Assembly (NCBI GenBank): GCA_020024055.1
Contig: JAHHUI010000001.1
Coordinates: forward strand, 1 to 44,902
Direction: 5' to 3'
DNA length: 44,902 nucleotides
DNA from: Spirochaetaceae bacterium
GTDB lineage: Bacteria; Spirochaetota; Spirochaetia; WRBN01
The notes beneath the pieces are model-generated. The model was not told the origin of the DNA. It saw only the letters and a list, made by a program, of their open reading frames with translations, and did no database searches. The position numbers and the translations under genes were made by a program. Positions 1 through 10,963 of the stretch are shown piece by piece (the first letter of the stretch is position 1; the number at the start of each line of letters is the position of its first letter).

Positions 1-686
1 GACCAGCTGCGCCCCCGATCGGCGGGATGATAGCCGCGCCAGGCCTCGTCTTGGGTATTCACCCCCGGGCCCGTTAAATCGGACAATCTGTATCTGCCTT
101 TCTCGTCCTCGTGCCGATAAAATTTGTTTAAATATTTTTCATCATATTCTTGATATTGTCGATTAAAATACATCTGCGCAGGATCTTTGGCATAAAATAG
201 AATACTGTCGGTAATGCGCCCAAAACGACAGGGGTCATTATGCGAAGAAGTCCTTTGCCAGATAATCTCATTTTGAAAATTCTTCTCGCCGAAGAGAATA
301 TCCAGTAATATTTTCAAATAATGGCTCATAGACGAATCACAATGCAGATACAGACTTCCGCTGCTTTTCAGCAGGGCATGTATATAATACAGCCGATGCG
401 CCATCATCGTCAGATAAGCCATATGCCCCGCCGGAAAAAATGACTGATTGGCCGCAAGATAATTGTATAAAACGGGATGAATCTTTTGTATCCGCGCTAA
501 TTCCCGCGTATAATCTTCACGGGCCCATTGATCGGAAAAAGCCTTTTTGCCTTGATACTGATAATCCGCCCCTGAATTAAAGGGCGGATCAATATAGATC
601 AGATCAATAAAAGGCCGGCGATGGGGCTTATCATGCAGCGGACGTAAAACAGACAAACAATCAGCATGAAAAATCTGATTAAACAT
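1..686 (-). CDS. Site-specific DNA methyltransferase (N4/N6 amino-MTase, PF01555-like), N-terminal part only; the 3' end lies beyond the left window edge
   Basis: My own minus-strand translation from the ATG at 684-686 gives MFNQIFHADCLSVLRPL..HRRPFIDLIYIDPPFNS..YLTMMAHRLYYIH..LYLHCD..IIWQRTSSHND..GRYRL..GPGVN..AWRGYHPADRGRSW. It is colinear with and clearly paralogous to ORF 698..2383. It is absent from the ORF track because it runs off the edge. Confidence 0.8.
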   Translation of the reverse strand, partial: MFNQIFHADCLSVLRPLHDKPHRRPFIDLIYIDPPFNSGADYQYQGKKAFSDQWAREDYTRELARIQKIHPVLYNYLAANQSFFPAGHMAYLTMMAHRLYYIHALLKSSGSLYLHCDSSMSHYLKILLDILFGEKNFQNEIIWQRTSSHNDPCRFGRITDSILFYAKDPAQMYFNRQYQEYDEKYLNKFYRHEDEKGRYRLSDLTGPGVNTQDEAWRGYHPADRGRSW

Positions 687-697
687 TTTCAGATATC

Positions 698-2356
698 TTA
701 TCCATAAGTCACGCCAATAAGAAATCCCAGCCATTGGGGATATTCTTTTTTAATAATTTTCTCTATTGTCAGGATATACAGTCTTGGTATGTCATATAAC
801 ACTCCCGGTATTTTAAAGACACCCTGCTGATCGCAATGCTTCAACATACCGCTGGTCACTTGATTTTCAAAACAAACAAAAATCCCTAAATCCGCTTTTT
901 GCGTATTCATTGTCGTCGTAAAACGTTCCAACATCGCGATGGTGGCACCGCTGCTGCTCCGCCCTCCTTTCACTTCAATAATACAAAATCTTTTAACCCC
1001 CATAAAATCAAGAGCAATATGCCCGTCAAATCCGCCATCGCCTGTCTTTTTTGTTTGATGGCCTTTTAACACATATTCGACAATCCATTGTTCAAAAAGA
1101 AACGGCTTCTCTTTAGCGAATTTTTCTGCCTGCGCCACATCCTGGGGAAAGCCGATTACTCTATATTTTGCTTCTAAAGGCTTCAATCTTTTCTGTTCAA
1201 CCAGGCCAATGGCCAAATGATTAATATCTACACCCAGCCATTTTCGTTTTAATCTTTCCGCGACAGCAACTGCCGTGCCGCATCCGCAGAAAAAGTCCGC
1301 CATAATTCCATCCGGGGGGCAAGAACTTTCAACAATACGCTCCAGCAGGGCTTCCGGCTTTTGCGTGGGATAACCCAGTTTTTCCTTGGCATGCGGACTG
1401 ATAGGGGGAATATCCGTCCAGATATTCTGCAGAGGCACCCCCTCCATGGTATCTAAATAACGCTTAAATCGCGGCACCCCTTTGCCGGAAATTTCAATAA
1501 GGCCATGTTCATAAAGCAAATCTAATTTTTCAACAGTTGTCAGACTTTGTCTTTTCTCTTCCCCGATAATTTTCCTTAGAGCTTCTTTGGAAACAGACCA
1601 GCTGCGCCCCCGATCGGCGGGATGATAGCCGCGCCAGGCCTCGTCTTGGGCATTCACCCCGGGGCCCGTTAAATTATCTAATGTATATCTGCCTTTCTCG
1701 TCCTCGTGCCGATAAAATTTATCCAGATATTCCTGGCTATAAGGCGTATACAGCGTCTTAAAGTACATATTTTTCTTATTTTTGCTGTAAAAAAAGAGCG
1801 TATCACTTATTCTTCCAAAACGATCGGGGTCATTATGCGAAGAAGTTCTTTGCCAGATAATCTGATTTTGATAATTATCCAGCCCAAAAATAATATCCAG
1901 AATAATTTTTAAATAATGACTCATCGTATCATCACAATGCAGATAAAAACTTCCCGAATCTTTCAACAGCTTGTGCATATAATAAATACGATGCGCCATC
2001 ATCGTCAGATAAGACATTTGGCTGTCTGTAAAAATGGCTCTATTGCAGGTTAAAAAATTGTATAAGGCTAAATTAGAAAATCCGCGCATTTCTTCCAATT
2101 CCTGCGCGATTTCCACATTTGACCAGGTATCTGAAAATGCCTCTTTCAGCGCCGTGGTTTTAGCGCTGTCTTCTTTATTCTTTAATAAATCATCAAAAAG
2201 CAGATTATAATTTTTCTTAGAATTAAAGGGCGGATCAATATAGATCAGATCAATAAAAGGCCGGCGATGCTCTTTTCCCAAAAGCTTCAATATATTTAAG
2301 TTATCACCATAATAAAGCGTACTTTGAAAATTGGAATTGCTATCTTCGGTCATCAT
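698..2356 (-). CDS. DNA methyltransferase (beta-class N6-A/N4-C) fused to a C-terminal Mrr-type PD-(D/E)xK restriction-endonuclease-like domain
   Basis: Motif IV (IDPPFNS) lies N-terminal to YPTQKPEALLERI and to motif I (FFCGCGTAVAVA), which is the beta-class order. The C-terminal ~150 aa contain TGDGGFDGHI...IIEVKGG...GIFVCF, resembling the Mrr catalytic core. The track start at 2383 overlaps the metG stop by 17 nt. The ATG-ATG at 2351-2356, 10 nt after the metG stop, is the more likely start. Confidence 0.85.
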   Translation of the reverse strand: MMTEDSNSNFQSTLYYGDNLNILKLLGKEHRRPFIDLIYIDPPFNSKKNYNLLFDDLLKNKEDSAKTTALKEAFSDTWSNVEIAQELEEMRGFSNLALYNFLTCNRAIFTDSQMSYLTMMAHRIYYMHKLLKDSGSFYLHCDDTMSHYLKIILDIIFGLDNYQNQIIWQRTSSHNDPDRFGRISDTLFFYSKNKKNMYFKTLYTPYSQEYLDKFYRHEDEKGRYTLDNLTGPGVNAQDEAWRGYHPADRGRSWSVSKEALRKIIGEEKRQSLTTVEKLDLLYEHGLIEISGKGVPRFKRYLDTMEGVPLQNIWTDIPPISPHAKEKLGYPTQKPEALLERIVESSCPPDGIMADFFCGCGTAVAVAERLKRKWLGVDINHLAIGLVEQKRLKPLEAKYRVIGFPQDVAQAEKFAKEKPFLFEQWIVEYVLKGHQTKKTGDGGFDGHIALDFMGVKRFCIIEVKGGRSSSGATIAMLERFTTTMNTQKADLGIFVCFENQVTSGMLKHCDQQGVFKIPGVLYDIPRLYILTIEKIIKKEYPQWLGFLIGVTYG

Positions 2357-2366
2357 TTTCTCATTA

Positions 2367-5968
<3,602 letters not shown>

Positions 5969-5987
5969 TCCTTTAATAAATATAGTC

Positions 5988-6019
5988 AGAGCCGCTCATT
6001 CAGAGCGGCTCTTTTTTTG
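5988..6019 (+). terminator. Rho-independent terminator after eno
   Basis: A 10-bp stem (AGAGCCGCTC / GAGCGGCTCT), loop ATTCA, followed by T7. Confidence 0.85.
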
Positions 6020-6047
6020 TTTGTGAAAAACCTTGACATTACCCCCC
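5999..6047 (+). repeat. 49-nt block identical to 6556..6604 (3' half of the terminator plus the promoter -35 region)
   Basis: ttcagagcggctctttttttgtttgtgaaaaaccttgacattacccccc is present at both positions, by direct reading. Confidence 0.9.
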
Positions 6048-6061
6048 TCCCCGGGTATTCT
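6033..6061 (+). promoter_or_regulatory. Poly-C-spacer promoter copy P1 (TTGACA-17 nt-TATTCT)
   Basis: TTGACA at 6033-6038, spacer ttaCCCCCCtCCCCggg, TATTCT at 6056-6061. The GGAGG RBS and ATG of the lipoprotein gene follow ~30 nt downstream. Confidence 0.7.
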
Positions 6062-6090
6062 GTTTCCCAATGTAAAAACGGAGGATATAT

Positions 6091-6525
6091 ATGAGAAATT
6101 TTAAATCTTTATGCGCCGCTCTTATTTTCACTCTGCTGGCGGCCGCATGTTCAGCACCGGGAGCAAGCAACCCTCAGGCGAATCCCATCAAAATTACCGC
6201 GTTGAATGACACCATATGGTCTTATCATTATAAGGATAAGCAACAGAGAAGTTCATATTTTGTCATCACCTTTAAAGTCCAGGGCAATTCATACTTTGTC
6301 GGCTCAGCGTCAGCAGACACTTTGGAACTTGCGGTATCTCAGGCTTCAACAAACACAACCAAAGCAACCTATGACCCCAAAAAACCGGGTGAGATTCTTT
6401 TGAAGCGTCCTAGCGGAGATGAAATTTTTCGCCCATTAAATCAGAACGAAGCCGAATTAATCAGCCAAAAGCCCGGCACTCCGCAGGAATACAAAACTAT
6501 TAAAATGACTCTTTATAAGAAATAA
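6091..6525 (+). CDS. Small lipoprotein, family A (paralog of 7824..8234)
   Basis: Signal peptide with lipobox LLAAC|S, a GGAGG RBS, and about half-identical to the 7824 gene (ITALN-T-WSY, YFVI-FK, GEILL-RP-GDEIFRP, EAELI). Confidence 0.85.
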   Translation: MRNFKSLCAALIFTLLAAACSAPGASNPQANPIKITALNDTIWSYHYKDKQQRSSYFVITFKVQGNSYFVGSASADTLELAVSQASTNTTKATYDPKKPGEILLKRPSGDEIFRPLNQNEAELISQKPGTPQEYKTIKMTLYKK

Positions 6526-6546
6526 TCCTTCATTGTGATTATACTC

Positions 6547-6575
6547 AGCCGCTCGTTCAGAGCGGCTCTTTTTTT
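6547..6575 (+). terminator. Rho-independent terminator after lipoprotein gene 6091..6525
   Basis: Stem AGCCGCTC / GAGCGGCT, loop GTTCA, then T7. It is part of the repeated cassette. Confidence 0.8.
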
Positions 6576-6604
6576 GTTTGTGAAAAACCTTGACATTACC
6601 CCCC
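6556..6604 (+). repeat. 49-nt block identical to 5999..6047
   Basis: Direct comparison by eye; see the partner feature. Confidence 0.9.
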
Positions 6605-6617
6605 CCCCTGGTAGAAT
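6590..6617 (+). promoter_or_regulatory. Poly-C-spacer promoter copy P2 (TTGACA-16 nt-TAGAAT) with an uninterrupted C10 tract
   Basis: TTGACA at 6590-6595, spacer tta + C10 (6599-6608) + tgg, TAGAAT at 6612-6617. Confidence 0.7.
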
Positions 6618-6663
6618 CCTTTTGGAGTAAGACTTATTGTGTATACAATTTAAGGAGGAAAAT

Positions 6664-7206
6664 ATGGGAATTATATCAACACGCAAGAAAACTCTCATTG
6701 CTATTACTTTTGCCTTATTACTCTCGGGCAAAGCATTTGCCGGTTTTGGTGTGGGCATTAAAGCGGGCGGAGATTTAGGCAATTATAATTATTGGCGTGT
6801 AGGCGCCACCATGGGCATTGGCGAGATGCAAGGAAAACCCTTTATCATTGATGTTCTTTTTCACGGGCAAAATGGTGCACTTTTGATCAAGCCAACTTTC
6901 GACTGGCATGCATTAACACTGAACATGTCTATCATACAGCTATATATGGGTCTGGGTATTGGCACAGAATTTCTTGTCAAGGCAGCCTCATGGAGGATTG
7001 ATGATCCATTTGGCTTCGTTTTGTCGGCGCGCATTCCTCTTGGGCTCAAGATCTTCTTAAAGCCAGTAGAGCTGTTTGCAGAAGTGACACCGCAGCTTGG
7101 CTGGGAACATGTCAGCATAACTGATCTATATTACGGACAGCGTATCAGTTCTAACGGCTTCTACTGGAGCATCGGGCTGCATGCAGGTGCAAGAGTCTGG
7201 TTTTAA
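6664..7206 (+). CDS. Small outer-membrane beta-barrel protein (OmpW/OmpA-beta-barrel-like; family not resolved)
   Basis: AAGGAGG RBS before the ATG at 6664, signal peptide ending AFA|GF, alternating hydrophobic beta-strand pattern, and a C-terminal aromatic residue (..GARVWF). Confidence 0.65.
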   Translation: MGIISTRKKTLIAITFALLLSGKAFAGFGVGIKAGGDLGNYNYWRVGATMGIGEMQGKPFIIDVLFHGQNGALLIKPTFDWHALTLNMSIIQLYMGLGIGTEFLVKAASWRIDDPFGFVLSARIPLGLKIFLKPVELFAEVTPQLGWEHVSITDLYYGQRISSNGFYWSIGLHAGARVWF

Positions 7207-7219
7207 CAATTCATCAGTC

Positions 7220-7244
7220 AGCCGCTTTAAAAAAGCGGCTTTTT
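7220..7244 (+). terminator. Rho-independent terminator after 6664..7206
   Basis: Stem AGCCGCT(TT) / (AA)AGCGGCT followed by TTTT. Confidence 0.65.
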
Positions 7245-7245
7245 A

Positions 7246-7689
7246 TCACAAGCATTTCTCCACTAATAAATCTTCATCCTGCACATTTTTGCGAACAAAA
7301 GTATAACAATTTGTTTTCTCGTTCAGGGAAAAAGCAACATAAACAAAATCCTGATTCACCAGATGATCATTCCTGCAGCTATGTCTTTTCCTGACATAAT
7401 TATCTTCCAGAAAATTATTCAAAATTCCAATGAAAATATTTTTAAAGCTTAACAGATCACCACCGGTTGTTGCATCAATAATGATCTCAGCGATATTATT
7501 CTCATCCCTAAAATTGAAATCTGCCAGACCAAAGTCTGAGTATACACAAGTGATGCCATAAATTATACCTAAAAGTACACCGCGTGTTTTTTCTGCATCT
7601 AGATAGGAAAAATTTTTACCCACATCAATATTTAAAACGAGCTTAGACAATATAGTAACCTCTCCTTGCAAATAAAGATTTGTTCTCAT
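7246..7689 (-). CDS. Hypothetical cytoplasmic protein (147 aa) with no recognisable motif
   Basis: An uninterrupted ORF with no signal peptide, AT-rich. It is the only minus-strand gene inside the lipoprotein island. Confidence 0.5.
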   Translation of the reverse strand: MRTNLYLQGEVTILSKLVLNIDVGKNFSYLDAEKTRGVLLGIIYGITCVYSDFGLADFNFRDENNIAEIIIDATTGGDLLSFKNIFIGILNNFLEDNYVRKRHSCRNDHLVNQDFVYVAFSLNEKTNCYTFVRKNVQDEDLLVEKCL

Positions 7690-7767
7690 CTAATTTACAG
7701 CCATGAATGGAATCTACGTAAAAAAATTAATTTGGCAGCAGAATTCTTTTGGGGTTTCTGAAAAGCC

Positions 7768-7796
7768 TTGACATCATCCCCTCCCCCGGGTAGAAT
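7768..7796 (+). promoter_or_regulatory. Poly-C-spacer promoter copy P3 (TTGACA-17 nt-TAGAAT)
   Basis: TTGACA at 7768-7773, spacer tcatCCCCtCCCCCggg, TAGAAT at 7791-7796. Confidence 0.7.
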
Positions 7797-7823
7797 ACTC
7801 CAAATCTAATTTTTGGAGGTATT

Positions 7824-8234
7824 ATGAAAAAGAATTTGTCAATTTTACTGGGCCTTCTCTTTGTTTTTCTTCTCGCAGCCTGTTCCGTGCCGGATGCCCA
7901 TGGACGCACACCCATCAAAATTACTGCATTGAATGAAACTGTATGGTCTTATCTTCAACAGGATGGCACATATTTTGTCATTGCATTTAAAGGCTCAGGC
8001 ACTTCATATCATGTTGGCTCATCTTCATCCAATAACTTGTCTGCTGCAGCAACTCAAGCTTTAACAAGTGCAAATAACAAAACAACCTATGACTCCAAAA
8101 ATCCAGGTGAGATTCTTTTGCATCGTCCTGGCGGAGATGAGATTTTTCGCCCTGTTGATCAGCGTGAAGCTGAATTAATCAACAAATCCCCCAGCAGTCC
8201 CAAGCCAGTTATTAAAATGACACGCTATAAATAA
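7824..8234 (+). CDS. Small lipoprotein, family A
   Basis: Lipobox LLAAC|S, a GGAGG RBS, and paralogy to 6091..6525. Confidence 0.85.
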   Translation: MKKNLSILLGLLFVFLLAACSVPDAHGRTPIKITALNETVWSYLQQDGTYFVIAFKGSGTSYHVGSSSSNNLSAAATQALTSANNKTTYDSKNPGEILLHRPGGDEIFRPVDQREAELINKSPSSPKPVIKMTRYK

Positions 8235-8255
8235 ATTTTCGTTAAAATTCTGTTG

Positions 8256-8296
8256 CAGCCACTTTCCTTTCCAGAGGCGAAATGTGGCTGTTTTTT
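8256..8296 (+). terminator. Rho-independent terminator after 7824..8234
   Basis: Stem CAGCCAC...GTGGCTG followed by T6. Confidence 0.65.
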
Positions 8297-8310
8297 GTTT
8301 TTCAAAGTTA

Positions 8311-8334
8311 TTGACATCACCCCCCTGCCAGAAT
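8311..8334 (+). promoter_or_regulatory. Poly-C-spacer promoter copy P4, apparently crippled (spacer ~12 nt)
   Basis: TTGACA at 8311-8316, tcaCCCCCCtgc, CAGAAT. Aligned to P3, it lacks ~5 nt (cccggg/ta region) just before the -10. Confidence 0.5.
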
Positions 8335-8361
8335 ACTCCAAATACAATTTTGGGAGGTATT

Positions 8362-8763
8362 ATGAAAAAGAATTTATCAATTTCATTGGGACTTTTTCTC
8401 GTTTTTTTCTCACAGCCTGTTCTGTACCAGACGGCCACGGGCGCACACCCATAAAATTAGCGCATTGAACGAAACTGTATGGTCTTATCTTGAACAGAAT
8501 GGTACATATTTTGTCATTGCATTTAAAGACTCAGGCACTTCATACTTTGCCGGCTCATTTTCATCCAATAACTTGTCTGCTGCAGCAATTCAAGCTTTAG
8601 CAAGTGTAAATAACAAAACAACTTATAACCCAAAAAACCTGGAGAAATCTCTTTTTCAATACAAGGGACACAAAGACTCTTCCGTCCAATCAGCGAAACT
8701 GAAGCCGAATTTTCCACTTCAGGCCCAAATAGCAAAACAATTATTATGAAACGTATCAAGTAG
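8362..8763 (+). pseudogene. Frameshifted copy of the family A lipoprotein gene
   Basis: Colinear with 7824..8234 at the nucleotide level and very similar in the central part. At least 3 frame changes are needed: MKKNLSISLGLFLVFF / LTACSVPDGHGRTPIK / ALNETVWSYLEQNGTYFVIAFK.. / PKKPGEISF..RLFRPISETEAEF..IIMKRIK. The breaks sit at or near T7, A4 and A6 runs. Confidence 0.8.
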
Positions 8764-8784
8764 TTATTTGCGTTCTATCATCAG

Positions 8785-8824
8785 AGCCGCTTCTTTTCAG
8801 CAGAAAGATGCGGCTGTTTTTTTT
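8785..8824 (+). terminator. Rho-independent terminator after the family A pseudogene
   Basis: Imperfect extended hairpin AGCCGC-ttcttt...aaag-at-GCGGCT followed by T8. Confidence 0.6.
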
Positions 8825-9024
8825 CTTTTTTGAAAAACTCCCGGCATGAAAAATGCTCAGTCATCAGAAAAATTTAAACTCAGAAGTCTTTCTTAAATAT
8901 TGAATCTTTATTTTTTTGTAAAAAAGAAATTATACAAGCCAAACATAATTTTTTCTTTTAAATATTTTCTCCTTGCGTGAAAATACCTATTTTTATCTCC
9001 AACAAGAAAAAAGGAGGTCAGGAA

Positions 9025-9522
9025 ATGTTTTATCCCAGGACTTTTTCTCATATTGGCCTAAGTGTGCCCAATATTTATGAGGCGATGGAATTCTATTCTT
9101 CTGTGATGGGCTGGTATATTACAATGCCGGTGACGACAACCAAAGAGGAACATCGCACACCGATGTCTTGCATGTATCAGGAACTCTTTGGCCTTGGCTA
9201 TAAAGAATTTAAAATTGCTCATCTTTCTACAGGAGACCGTATAGGCATTGAATTGTTTGAATTTCCAGACAATGATGGACGTCGCAAGCCCTTTATGCCA
9301 CATAAAACAGGTGTTTTCCACTATTGCGTTCAAGACCCCGATGTGGAAGGCCTGGTACAGCGAATATTGAAAGCCGGAGGCAAACAGCGCTCAGCCATCA
9401 CATATTATTATCCTGAAAAGTCTCCCTATCGTATGGTCTACATGGAAGATCCATTTGGCAATGTGGTGGAGATTTATTCACATCCTTATGACATTCATTA
9501 TACATCAAAAATCTATCATTAA
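9025..9522 (+). CDS. VOC family protein (glyoxalase / bleomycin-resistance / dioxygenase fold)
   Basis: FSHIGLSVPNIYEAMEFY..GW, IGIELFEF, and a second module FHYCVQDPDVEGLVQRILKAGG...DPFGNVVEIY. The start is set at the ATG at 9025, preceded by AAGGAGG. Confidence 0.7.
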   Translation: MFYPRTFSHIGLSVPNIYEAMEFYSSVMGWYITMPVTTTKEEHRTPMSCMYQELFGLGYKEFKIAHLSTGDRIGIELFEFPDNDGRRKPFMPHKTGVFHYCVQDPDVEGLVQRILKAGGKQRSAITYYYPEKSPYRMVYMEDPFGNVVEIYSHPYDIHYTSKIYH

Positions 9523-9533
9523 TGGAGCTAAAA

Positions 9534-10010
9534 ATGCTTAATTATCTGAGGATTTTTTGGCTTTGACAGGCCTCTGGTGGTTTTTGTCTCTTGTTCTTCG
9601 CCCACATCGACAGGCGCCAAAGGAGGCGATGGAAATACTGGCGGAGTGACCCCCGCCGGACCCTGATGAAAACCCTGAGGAACCGGACATCCCTGATCAT
9701 CCCTTTATTAATGTGGATTCCCTGAACAATACTACATGGATAGGAATAAATGCTGCCGCAGGCGGAACCTGGGTGGCAGTGAAATTCGTGAAAACAGGCG
9801 ACAAAACCCTGGATGCTTATTTTGGGGAAGGCAATGACCAAGGCCTGGCCAATCAAAGATTTGACCAAGCCGGCCAACACCAAATCAGACCCCAATAATA
9901 ATTCGCTTTCTTTTGACAAATACAAATTTGACTTCAAAAGTGAATCACGATCAATTCTTACATCAGGAAAAAAGACCATTTCTGATAATTTGGACAAAAC
10001 CAATCAATAA
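9534..10010 (+). pseudogene. Frameshifted lipoprotein gene (family B, LN-T-W..V-F motif)
   Basis: Reading three frames gives MLNYLRIF / ..LVVFVSC|SSPTSTGAKGGDGNTGGVTP / PDPDENPEEPDIPDHPFINVDSLNNTTWIGINAAAGGTWVAVKFVKTGDKTLDAYFGEGNDQG / ..KDLTKPANTKSDPNNNSLSFDKYKFDF..KTNQ*. The breaks are near a T6 run and a C5 run. Confidence 0.6.
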
Positions 10011-10020
10011 GCCATTTTAT

Positions 10021-10045
10021 ACCTGCCTTAAAGGCGGGTTTTTTA
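10021..10045 (+). terminator. Rho-independent terminator after 9534..10010
   Basis: Stem ACCTGCC / GGCGGGT (one G-U pair), a short loop, then T6. Confidence 0.65.
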
Positions 10046-10064
10046 AATTTTTTTGTCAAAAAAC

Positions 10065-10092
10065 TTGACAAAATCCCCCCTCCCCCTAATAT
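10065..10092 (+). promoter_or_regulatory. Poly-C-spacer promoter copy P5 (TTGACA-16 nt-TAATAT) with no ORF behind it
   Basis: TTGACA at 10065-10070, spacer aaatCCCCCCtCCCCC, TAATAT at 10087-10092. No RBS + ATG follows within the distance seen at P1-P4. Confidence 0.55.
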
Positions 10093-10098
10093 AAAATC

Positions 10099-10377
10099 AG
10101 TCCAATAACCTGAATTAGGTTATTTTGTTGTGTGATATTTTACCCATTCCAGTTAAGTTTTTAATTATGTATTTTTTTTTGCCCCAAGCAAGAGTTCCTA
10201 CGCCAAACCATACATATTAAAATACATAAAAATATCAGACAACCCATATTTTAGGGATTGTATATTCTCATATGAGTTTTGCTGTTTGATAAATAGCTGA
10301 CTCCTCTGATTCCTGATTACATGAGATATACAATTCCCGGCTTTCTGCACCCGGGCTTTCATGCCCGGGTGTTTTTT
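10099..10377 (+). ncRNA. Candidate ~280-nt non-coding transcript, or a fully decayed gene relic, between promoter P5 and a strong terminator
   Basis: Bounded by P5 and a terminator. The longest plus-strand ATG ORFs I found are 17 and 29 codons, without an RBS. It has a 5' hairpin AATAACCT-gaatt-AGGTTATT (10104-10124) and an internal T9 run (10172-10180). Confidence 0.25.
10348..10377 (+). terminator. Rho-independent terminator
   Basis: Perfect 9-bp GC-rich stem CACCCGGGC / GCCCGGGTG, loop TTTCAT, then T6. Confidence 0.85.
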
Positions 10378-10396
10378 CTTATCTACCACTTATTTC

Positions 10397-10425
10397 TTGA
10401 CATTCTATAGCAAACTATGTAGATT
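10397..10425 (+). promoter_or_regulatory. Candidate sigma70 promoter (TTGACA-17 nt-TAGATT), without a poly-C spacer
   Basis: TTGACA at 10397-10402 and TAGATT at 10420-10425. A GGAGG RBS and the ATG at 10462 lie downstream. Confidence 0.6.
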
Positions 10426-10461
10426 CCATCACAATTTATTGATAGACGGAGGATAATACCA

Positions 10462-10854
10462 ATGTTGAAGTATGCCAAAATTTTATGCTGACTATCCTTG
10501 CTATGCTATCTGCCTGTAAAGAGCTCCTCAGCGTAATCATAACCAAACCACAATGCCAGAATATTCTGAAATTTCATCTTCTGTACCAACAGACCCTAAT
10601 AATCTTAATGGAGTGGTATGAGAAGGAAAAACGGATTATGGCTTGTATGTAGTGAGTTTTTTAAAAAAATTACTGATACCAGCGTAGTCTATTATACAGG
10701 GTTGTCTGAAAATCTGGCAATGGCCAGAGCCTATGCCTTTATGTCATATCCCCAGCACACAGAAATTAAAAGTGACACTGTGATTGTTATATTTATGTAT
10801 GGGCAATTTGTTTACGATTTTCGCATTATCAACGAAAATGAAAAGCACAAATAG
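10462..10854 (+). pseudogene. Frameshifted lipoprotein gene (family B-like)
   Basis: MLKYAKIL / MLTILAMLSAC|KE (lipobox) / ..PTDPNNLNGVVWEGKTDYGLYVVSF / KKITDTSVVYYTGLSENLAMARAYAF...INENEKHK*. At least 3 frames are needed. Only the last segment appears in the ORF track (10618..10854). Confidence 0.55.
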
Positions 10855-10963
10855 TTGGGGTTTATGAACTTTCCTATTCCGCTGAAAAGAATGCAATAAT
10901 TCAATATTTACACCCTTTCTTGCTTGATAAAAGGAAGGGTAGTAAAGCCTTCTTTTGATTAAT

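Follow-up and report, generated by a model that had tools for sequence, protein, structure and literature searches.

The 44.9-kb stretch of DNA analyzed here (contig JAHHUI010000001.1, referred to below as the window, in whose coordinates all positions without a contig name are given) harbors an island, located in a variable stretch between the enolase gene and the VIT1, rlmE and hisS genes, in which five TTGACA hexamers are each followed by a C-rich spacer. On the basis of the comparative analysis of these five elements (P1 to P5) and of their counterparts in related lineages, we consider it likely that they are sigma-70-type promoters and that the length of their spacers is phase-variable by slipped-strand mispairing.

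Structure and organization of the five promoters

All the TTGAC[AT] sites of the window were scanned on both strands, and the region 5700-10400 was read directly. TTGACA followed by a C-rich spacer was found at five sites (6033, 6590, 7768, 8311 and 10065), all located on the + strand and within 4 kb (Table 1), and none of the other TTGAC[AT] sites of the window, on either strand, has a spacer rich in C (more than 6 C in the first 17 spacer bases). The pattern TTGACAN{2,4}CCCC is present 5 times in the window versus the 0.25 +/- 0.52 occurrences expected (100 dinucleotide-preserving shuffles, 0 of which reached 5). As scored against the sigma-70 consensus, four of the five promoters, with 10-11 of 12 positions, rank among the best matches of the region; each of the elements sits 20-35 nucleotides (nt) 3' of an intrinsic terminator, and P1 to P4 precede a start codon by 28-46 nt, with a Shine-Dalgarno sequence of the GGAGG type.

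The five tracts are not equivalent. That of P2 (6599-6608) is the sole uninterrupted one, and its C10 is also the sole C/G run of at least 8 nt in the window, where about 0.07 runs of at least nine C would be expected from composition. The tracts of P1, P3 and P5 are 10-12 nt long and each is broken by a T, with spacers of 16-17 nt, while in P4 about 5 nt of spacer are missing relative to P3 and a T has been lost from the -10 hexamer.

An earlier sequence-only reading of this DNA had described the same five copies, and their positions, hexamer spacings and tract compositions were confirmed both by the sequence and by the scan, as was the occurrence of a 49-nt block of 100% identity embedding terminator sequence (5999-6047 is exactly identical to 6556-6604). 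The common design that it proposed, with a GGG followed by TAGAAT or TATTCT, is correct for copies 1 and 3; it does not extend to copy 5, which lacks the GGG and has TAATAT as its -10, nor to copy 2, where a TGG forms part of an extended -10. One of its tract ranges (7778-7887) has to be corrected to 7778-7787, and the possible relic promoter that it placed at 8831-8846 was rejected as a sixth copy, the same degenerate form being present in two other lineages and hence old and uninformative. A hairpin formed within the spacer by the CCC..GGG segments (6040-6057) was also considered and rejected, as it is not kept in the copies with tgg or tga.

Table 1. Position and main characters of the promoters, genes, terminators and candidate RNA of the island.
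Feature	Coordinates	Strand	Characters
P1	6033-6061	+	TTGACA 6033-6038; spacer tta-C6TC4-ggg, 17 nt; -10 TATTCT 6056-6061; T-interrupted tract 6042-6052
P2	6590-6617	+	TTGACA 6590-6595; spacer tta-C10-tgg, 16 nt; -10 TAGAAT 6612-6617; extended -10 TGn
P3	7768-7796	+	TTGACA 7768-7773; spacer tcat-C4TC5-ggg, 17 nt; -10 TAGAAT 7791-7796; T-interrupted tract
P4	8311-8334	+	TTGACA 8311-8316; spacer tca-C6-tgc, 12 nt; -10 CAGAAT 8329-8334; degenerate
P5	10065-10092	+	TTGACA 10065-10070; spacer aaat-C6TC5, 16 nt; -10 TAATAT 10087-10092
Sigma-70-like promoter without C tract	10397-10425	+	TTGACA 10397, 17 nt, TAGATT; conserved; 5' of the next lipoprotein gene
Lipoprotein A	6091-6525	+	144 amino acids; signal peptide, lipobox LAAAC/S (cleavage at the stroke); behind P1
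Gene B	6664-7206	+	180 amino acids; signal peptide, predicted 8-stranded outer-membrane beta-barrel, C-terminal Phe; behind P2
Lipoprotein D	7824-8234	+	136 amino acids; signal peptide, lipobox LLAAC/S; paralogue of A (57% identical); behind P3
Pseudogene E	8363-8749	+	frameshifted D paralogue, 85.6% nucleotide identity to D; behind P4
Candidate structured non-coding RNA or long leader	10093-10378	+	about 280 nt behind P5; intrinsic terminator 10347-10372
Enolase intrinsic terminator	5988-6012	+	10-bp stem then T run; 3' half within the 49-nt terminator-promoter cassette
Gene A intrinsic terminator	6547-6567	+	
Gene B intrinsic terminator	7220-7240	+	
Gene D terminator	8256-8296	+	hairpin then T run, read from sequence
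Intrinsic terminator 5' of P5	10021-10039	+	

Conservation of the tracts and variation of their length

The same loci were compared in related genomes. Starting from a homologue of lipoprotein D (P0002), we reached a 320-kb ENA contig (L001) and two short ones (L002 and L003), the three coming from three ENA assemblies; further lineages (L107-L110, L114 and L115/L116) were reached through cluster members of the window proteins. The flanks of L001, which represents a sister lineage, embed, in this order, metS, enolase, the island, a glyoxalase gene, VIT1, rlmE and hisS, with a nucleotide identity to the window of 86-92%. The gene set of its island is not the same, yet promoters built in this way again number five, and an uninterrupted C10 is found in four of them.

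The alignments of L002 with L001 (3750 nt), of L003 with L001 (3132 nt) and of L002 with L003 (2400 nt) have 0 mismatches, and the differences among the three contigs consist of tract gaps alone: the tract at L001:8647 is C10 or C9, and that at L001:9048 has a different length in each sample (C10, C9 and C11). No such variation is seen in the A8 and T7 runs of the same DNA, and the interrupted promoter at L001:9942, with its 17-nt spacing, is identical in the three samples. This pattern is the one that would be expected of slipped-strand contingency loci, and it supports slipped-strand variation of spacer length. The first C of a third tract is precisely where the contig L002 starts, which is a weak hint only of a mixture of lengths within the population.

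The tract, and not its length, is conserved at orthologous promoters in five lineages. In L107-L110 the promoter of the barrel gene (the counterpart of gene B) has C10 with a 16-nt spacing, that of D has C9 with 15 nt, and C10 is also found in the P5 orthologue; L114 (GCA_964262825.1) has one promoter, with C9 and 15 nt; in L115/L116 the barrel gene is all that is left of the island, with the promoter TTGACA-attt-C11-gc-TAAAAT and a spacing of 17 nt. The tract of the barrel gene is thus kept in four lineages, as C10 with 16 nt in the window and in L107/L108, as C9-11 with 18-20 nt in L001-L003 and as C11 with 17 nt in L115/L116, and it is retained in L115 even though the region of the barrel gene shares only about 74% nucleotide identity with the window. 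The barrel gene together with its poly-C promoter thus forms the conserved core of the island. All the C/G runs of at least 8 nt fall inside these spacers in the window (1/1), in L001 (4/4) and in L115 (1/1).

As regards the host, precomputed Pfam TP_0437 matches are found on a syntenic neighbor gene, and in a more distant relative a homologue of B with 50% identity adjoins a cheA-cheW/R-cheX-cheY cluster; from these matches and this cluster the host is probably spirochaete-like. In L111 and L112, which represent a more distant relative, four paralogous genes, each coding for about 200 amino acids, come after a homologue of B with 50% identity, and there are no poly-C spacer promoters. A poly-G run lies there just 3' of a TAGAAT and ahead of the final one of these paralogues, and is G10 in L111 (13000-13009) and G9 in L112 (about 9538-9546), a difference that alters the called open reading frame (ORF; 204 versus 227 amino acids). 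In L114, G9 and G8 runs (C on the other strand) occur at 3375-3383 and 783-790 inside terminator-like hairpins, and not in promoters; these hairpins lie downstream of enolase and of another gene.

A model for spacer variation

It is known that the strength of sigma-70 promoters changes strongly over spacers of 15-20 nt, with an optimum at 17 nt, and that an extended -10 (TGn) lessens the dependence on the -35 hexamer and on the spacer. We propose that the five promoters would drive independent, terminator-bounded transcription units, each promoter having a poly-C tract between its -35 and its -10 on the non-template strand. Slipped-strand mispairing at replication would add or remove C's, moving the hexamer spacing around the optimum and changing promoter strength, so that each unit might be switched or tuned independently and mixed populations might arise, in which lipoproteins A and D, barrel B and the structured RNA are combined differently; a C-to-T change within a tract would stabilize a favorable spacing. 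Indeed, slippage into and out of the optimal spacing is suggested by the fact that the spacings observed in the uninterrupted alleles span 15-20 nt and bracket 17 nt, while the T-interrupted alleles, four in number, are at exactly 17 nt in three cases (P1 and P3 of the window, and L001:9942) and at 16 nt in one (P5 of the window). That transcription starts at these elements, that expression depends on tract length and that variation is reversible and frequent is what we infer from these data.

According to this model, the system is partly frozen or decayed in the window strain, its three T-interrupted tracts being probably stabilized near the optimum, and P2 alone (C10, 16 nt, before the barrel gene) should still be highly mutable. 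P4 is dead, and it has decayed together with gene E.

Points against the model and alternative explanations

Several observations weigh against phase variation of the tracts or restrict its extent. Among the uninterrupted tracts that can be compared between near-identical contigs, only 2 of 5 vary: L107 and L108 both have C10, L001 and L003 agree in the C10 at L001:11308, and L115 and L116, two strains of another lineage, are separated by 32 single-nucleotide polymorphisms, yet both have C11. Tract variation is hence not universal. The lengths themselves come from metagenome consensus contigs, in which homopolymer miscalls or slippage during the polymerase chain reaction are possible. The sole independent contig of the same strain (L105, a 2.3-kb Logan contig) is identical to the window, including the sequence of P3, and covers only two tracts, which are interrupted or degenerate, and in the window strain high-frequency switching is likely at one promoter at most, P2 (6590). 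An extended -10 of the TGn type is present in P2 and in several orthologues and, since it lowers the dependence on the -35 and on the spacer, the effect of a length change may be graded instead of on/off. Finally, the identical 49-nt block points to a common ancestry of the cassettes, so that their recurrence in the window does not represent five independent events.

This last point is also the starting point of a different explanation. A single ancestral terminator-promoter unit would have spread along with the paralogous genes, its duplicated copies being ordinary promoter cassettes that have simply inherited the C-rich spacer, and the few length differences would be due to assembly or sequencing noise or to neutral drift, with no regulatory effect. 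Such a scenario would account for the block common to P1 and P2, for the paralogy of genes A, D and E and for the three of five comparable uninterrupted tracts that are the same between samples, and the TGn extended -10 found at several copies could buffer spacing changes. However, it does not readily explain why about 9 kb of substitution-free pairwise alignments should differ in two C9-C11 tracts alone, one of which shows three lengths in three samples, nor why uninterrupted tracts should persist where orthologous genes have fallen to about 74% identity, in loci that have no long C/G runs elsewhere. Moreover, spacers of 15-20 nt cover the range over which sigma-70 promoters are generally known to change strongly in strength, as in the case of tp0126 and porA (PMC7864442). 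Overall, we regard the duplication of functionally neutral spacers as rather unlikely.

The sequence-only reading had offered as its own alternative that the C-rich element is an operator, and a related possibility is that it is a special promoter determinant, for one dedicated regulator or sigma factor, the island representing its regulon. What conflicts with both is the variability of the element: only its C-richness is conserved, while copies and lineages are unlike in their tract length (9-11), in their interruptions and in the spacer bases on either side, and neither a dyad nor a direct-repeat symmetry is present. Canonical sigma-70 hexamers flank it and the island contains no regulator gene; neither the fixed-length motif nor the nearby regulator gene of a dedicated-factor operator is found. 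That every unit has an element of this kind, and has it in the same place, would fit an operator, and in Treponema pallidum the poly-G tracts of the tprE/G/J promoters act in concert with a homologue of CRP (PMC7864442); nevertheless, we consider a dedicated operator very improbable.

Slipped-strand variation of the spacer, which was also the mechanism favored by the sequence-only reading, is therefore retained in a modified form. It agrees with the uninterrupted C9-C11 tracts of the orthologues and with the comparison of the same loci in related genomes, where tract lengths differ among L001-L003 with zero substitutions; as a description of the window itself it has to be limited, three of the tracts being interrupted by a T and one promoter being dead.

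The genes behind the promoters

Of the five units, three (A, B and D) fit the description of the island as an array of surface-protein genes, copy 4 preceding a pseudogene and copy 5 a candidate non-coding RNA. The units of P1 and P3 encode lipoproteins (A and D) and that of P2 a modeled barrel (B), that is, envelope components. These proteins have very few relatives: the family of A has only 2 clusters among 5.8 billion proteins, and that of B has 10 matches among 1.84 billion representatives. No significant Pfam family was found for proteins A, B, C and D, the sole significant match of the island being that of the glyoxalase; A has only a sub-threshold match to DUF3592, the other window proteins searched in NCBIfam and Pfam belong to generic families only, and exact-protein look-ups of the window lipoprotein A and of the enolase returned no record.

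An AlphaFold (AF2) model of B, built from its alignment with nine relatives, has a pLDDT (predicted local distance difference test) of 88.3 and about eight long beta-strands. In a Foldseek comparison with the PDB, every top match of this model is an outer-membrane barrel, OmpW being the best (template modeling (TM) score 0.62-0.64, identity 11-15%). No Pfam match was obtained for B at E <= 0.1, hence B does not belong to the OmpW sequence family and the likeness is at the fold level only. The model of lipoprotein A, with a pLDDT of 51, was too poor for use.

Other genes of the region were also inspected. A protein of 147 amino acids with no family match is encoded between B and D (7246-7689, - strand), and its lineage 3 counterpart has 134 amino acids (L108). 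The gene after the glyoxalase (9535-10010, + strand) is split over several frames in the window; L109 has an intact ORF of 157 amino acids (1083-1556), and in L001 no gene is called at that position. This split gene is another sign of an island decaying or in flux. In the first part of the window (1-2300), two C5 runs (12-16 and 1607-1611) are each followed by one and the same 20-mer, gatcggcgggatgatagccg, and synteny with L001 places here two paralogous N6/N4 DNA methyltransferase genes beside metS.

A candidate structured RNA behind P5

No credible ORF was found in the region behind P5 (10093-10378), whose longest ORF, on the minus strand, is apparently broken by a 1-nt deletion in L109, according to the reading of the alignment. 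A three-lineage alignment spanning this region has a mean column identity of 94%, above that of the neighboring genes; the fold of 10099-10378 has an energy of -81.3 kcal/mol (z = -7.4 versus shuffles), and the consensus fold has 87 pairs, with 4 compensatory (changes on both sides) and 4 broken. No Rfam family was recovered for the candidate RNA, the sub-threshold matches being terminator-like only. When it was paired in silico with the 5' regions of the genes of the island, the predicted RNA-RNA duplexes were long loop-ridden hybrids with no clear significance, and no target is claimed.

The P5 orthologues of L001 and L109 have an uninterrupted C10, and L001 and L003 both have C10, with no length difference there. 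The transcript predicted behind P5 may be a small RNA (sRNA) in its own right, or it may serve the lipoprotein gene downstream as a long leader. A bolder idea is that it represents a new phase-variable riboregulator, acting perhaps on the surface genes of the island, and that C-to-T changes have repeatedly locked promoters at 17 nt; we put this forward as a speculation that is more doubtful than probable. The downstream lipoprotein gene (10397-10860, + strand) is broken in the window, its ORFs being split into 10485-10652 and 10618-10854, with an A4T4 run in place of A4T5 near 10487. The same gene is intact in relatives, where it encodes 143-144 amino acids (L001 11696-12127; L109 2005-2439).

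Comparison with known phase-variable systems

In T. pallidum, a poly-G tract lies between the -35 and the -10 of tp0126, which is transcribed best at a 17-nt spacing, and the same applies to porA of Neisseria meningitidis (PMC7864442). As in the island described here, a G/C tract is placed in the sigma-70 spacer of a gene coding for an outer-membrane beta-barrel, which in the case of tp0126 is a homologue of OmpW, that is, the protein giving the best TM-score match to the modeled 8-stranded barrel of B, in a host that is here probably spirochaete-like. The two situations differ in that the tract is here poly-C on the coding strand, and not poly-G, and in that five cassettes are arranged in tandem in one island. 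In addition, B has no detectable sequence homology with OmpW/TP0126, so that the link is one of fold and of regulatory logic, which is here read from sequence.

A similar arrangement is that of the vlp genes of Mycoplasma hyorhinis, where each lipoprotein gene has its own promoter and poly-A tract and is transcribed separately, giving rise to combinatorial surface mosaics (reported in PMC10502178, which cites Citti and Wise 1995). The likeness concerns the clustering of lipoprotein genes behind near-identical promoter cassettes with a homopolymer tract; on the other hand, the vlp tract is poly-A, there is no outer membrane, the proteins are unrelated, and the size variation of Vlp proteins via coding repeats is not seen here. 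Taking porA, tp0126 and vlp as a class, the island shares with it the homopolymer (about 8 nt or more) between sigma-70 hexamers and, with the exceptions of P4 and P5, the control of surface or envelope components (A, D and B); a length change with unchanged flanks between close genomes is found in the sister lineage and not in the window's own strain.

The interrupted alleles have a parallel in Bordetella, where the C-stretch of fim3 reads C6TC3 in B. parapertussis, as against C13 in B. pertussis and C22 in B. bronchiseptica (PMC1891110). The fim2/fim3/fimX promoters thus combine a strain-variable poly-C with interrupted alleles, as do C10 and C6TC4 here; in contrast, they need the activator BvgA and a 'fim box' and control fimbrial subunits, whereas no activator site is evident here. 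As for P5 and its RNA of about 280 nt, the closest analogue is the sRNA NikS (HPnc4160) of Helicobacter pylori, which is phase-variable through a T stretch of variable length that lies upstream of its -10 and whose targets include outer-membrane proteins (PMC8322730). Both would have a homopolymer in the promoter of a small RNA, but there is no homology of sequence or structure (no Rfam match), and the RNA described here is longer, is a candidate and could be a cis-acting leader.

A scan of genome contigs with the promoter pattern returned 101 scattered single matches from many phyla; among the 99 usable ones, 28 have TAnn[AT]T at 16-18 nt versus 2.2 expected, and poly-C spacers thus recur widely across phyla. 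A scan of JGI metagenomes with the P2-type promoter gave 0 matches. Some of the genome-contig matches fall into groups of similar promoters from unrelated phyla (L007/L040/L071/L076, Variovorax; L023/L069/L090/L104, with L023 and L069 titled Chthonomonadales; L047/L100/L103, with L047 titled Absconditabacterales), in which TTGACA is followed by poly-C spacers of varied length, and one T-interrupted allele (CCCCTCCCCCC) versus C11 shows the same style of decay.

Biological significance

The mechanism proposed here is a classical one, and the value of the finding lies in a well-supported new instance and not in a new principle. The island would represent a contingency locus that carries no annotation and belongs to an uncultured lineage, the lipoprotein and barrel families of which have hardly any other members in public data. 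Its uninterrupted, T-interrupted and deleted alleles form a natural series in which the ways phase-variable promoters get fixed or decay might be followed, and it points to a candidate phase-variable structured RNA, which is the least ordinary part of the locus. For the biology of the organism, the locus predicts which envelope proteins would vary stochastically and are hence probably exposed to host, phage or other selection.

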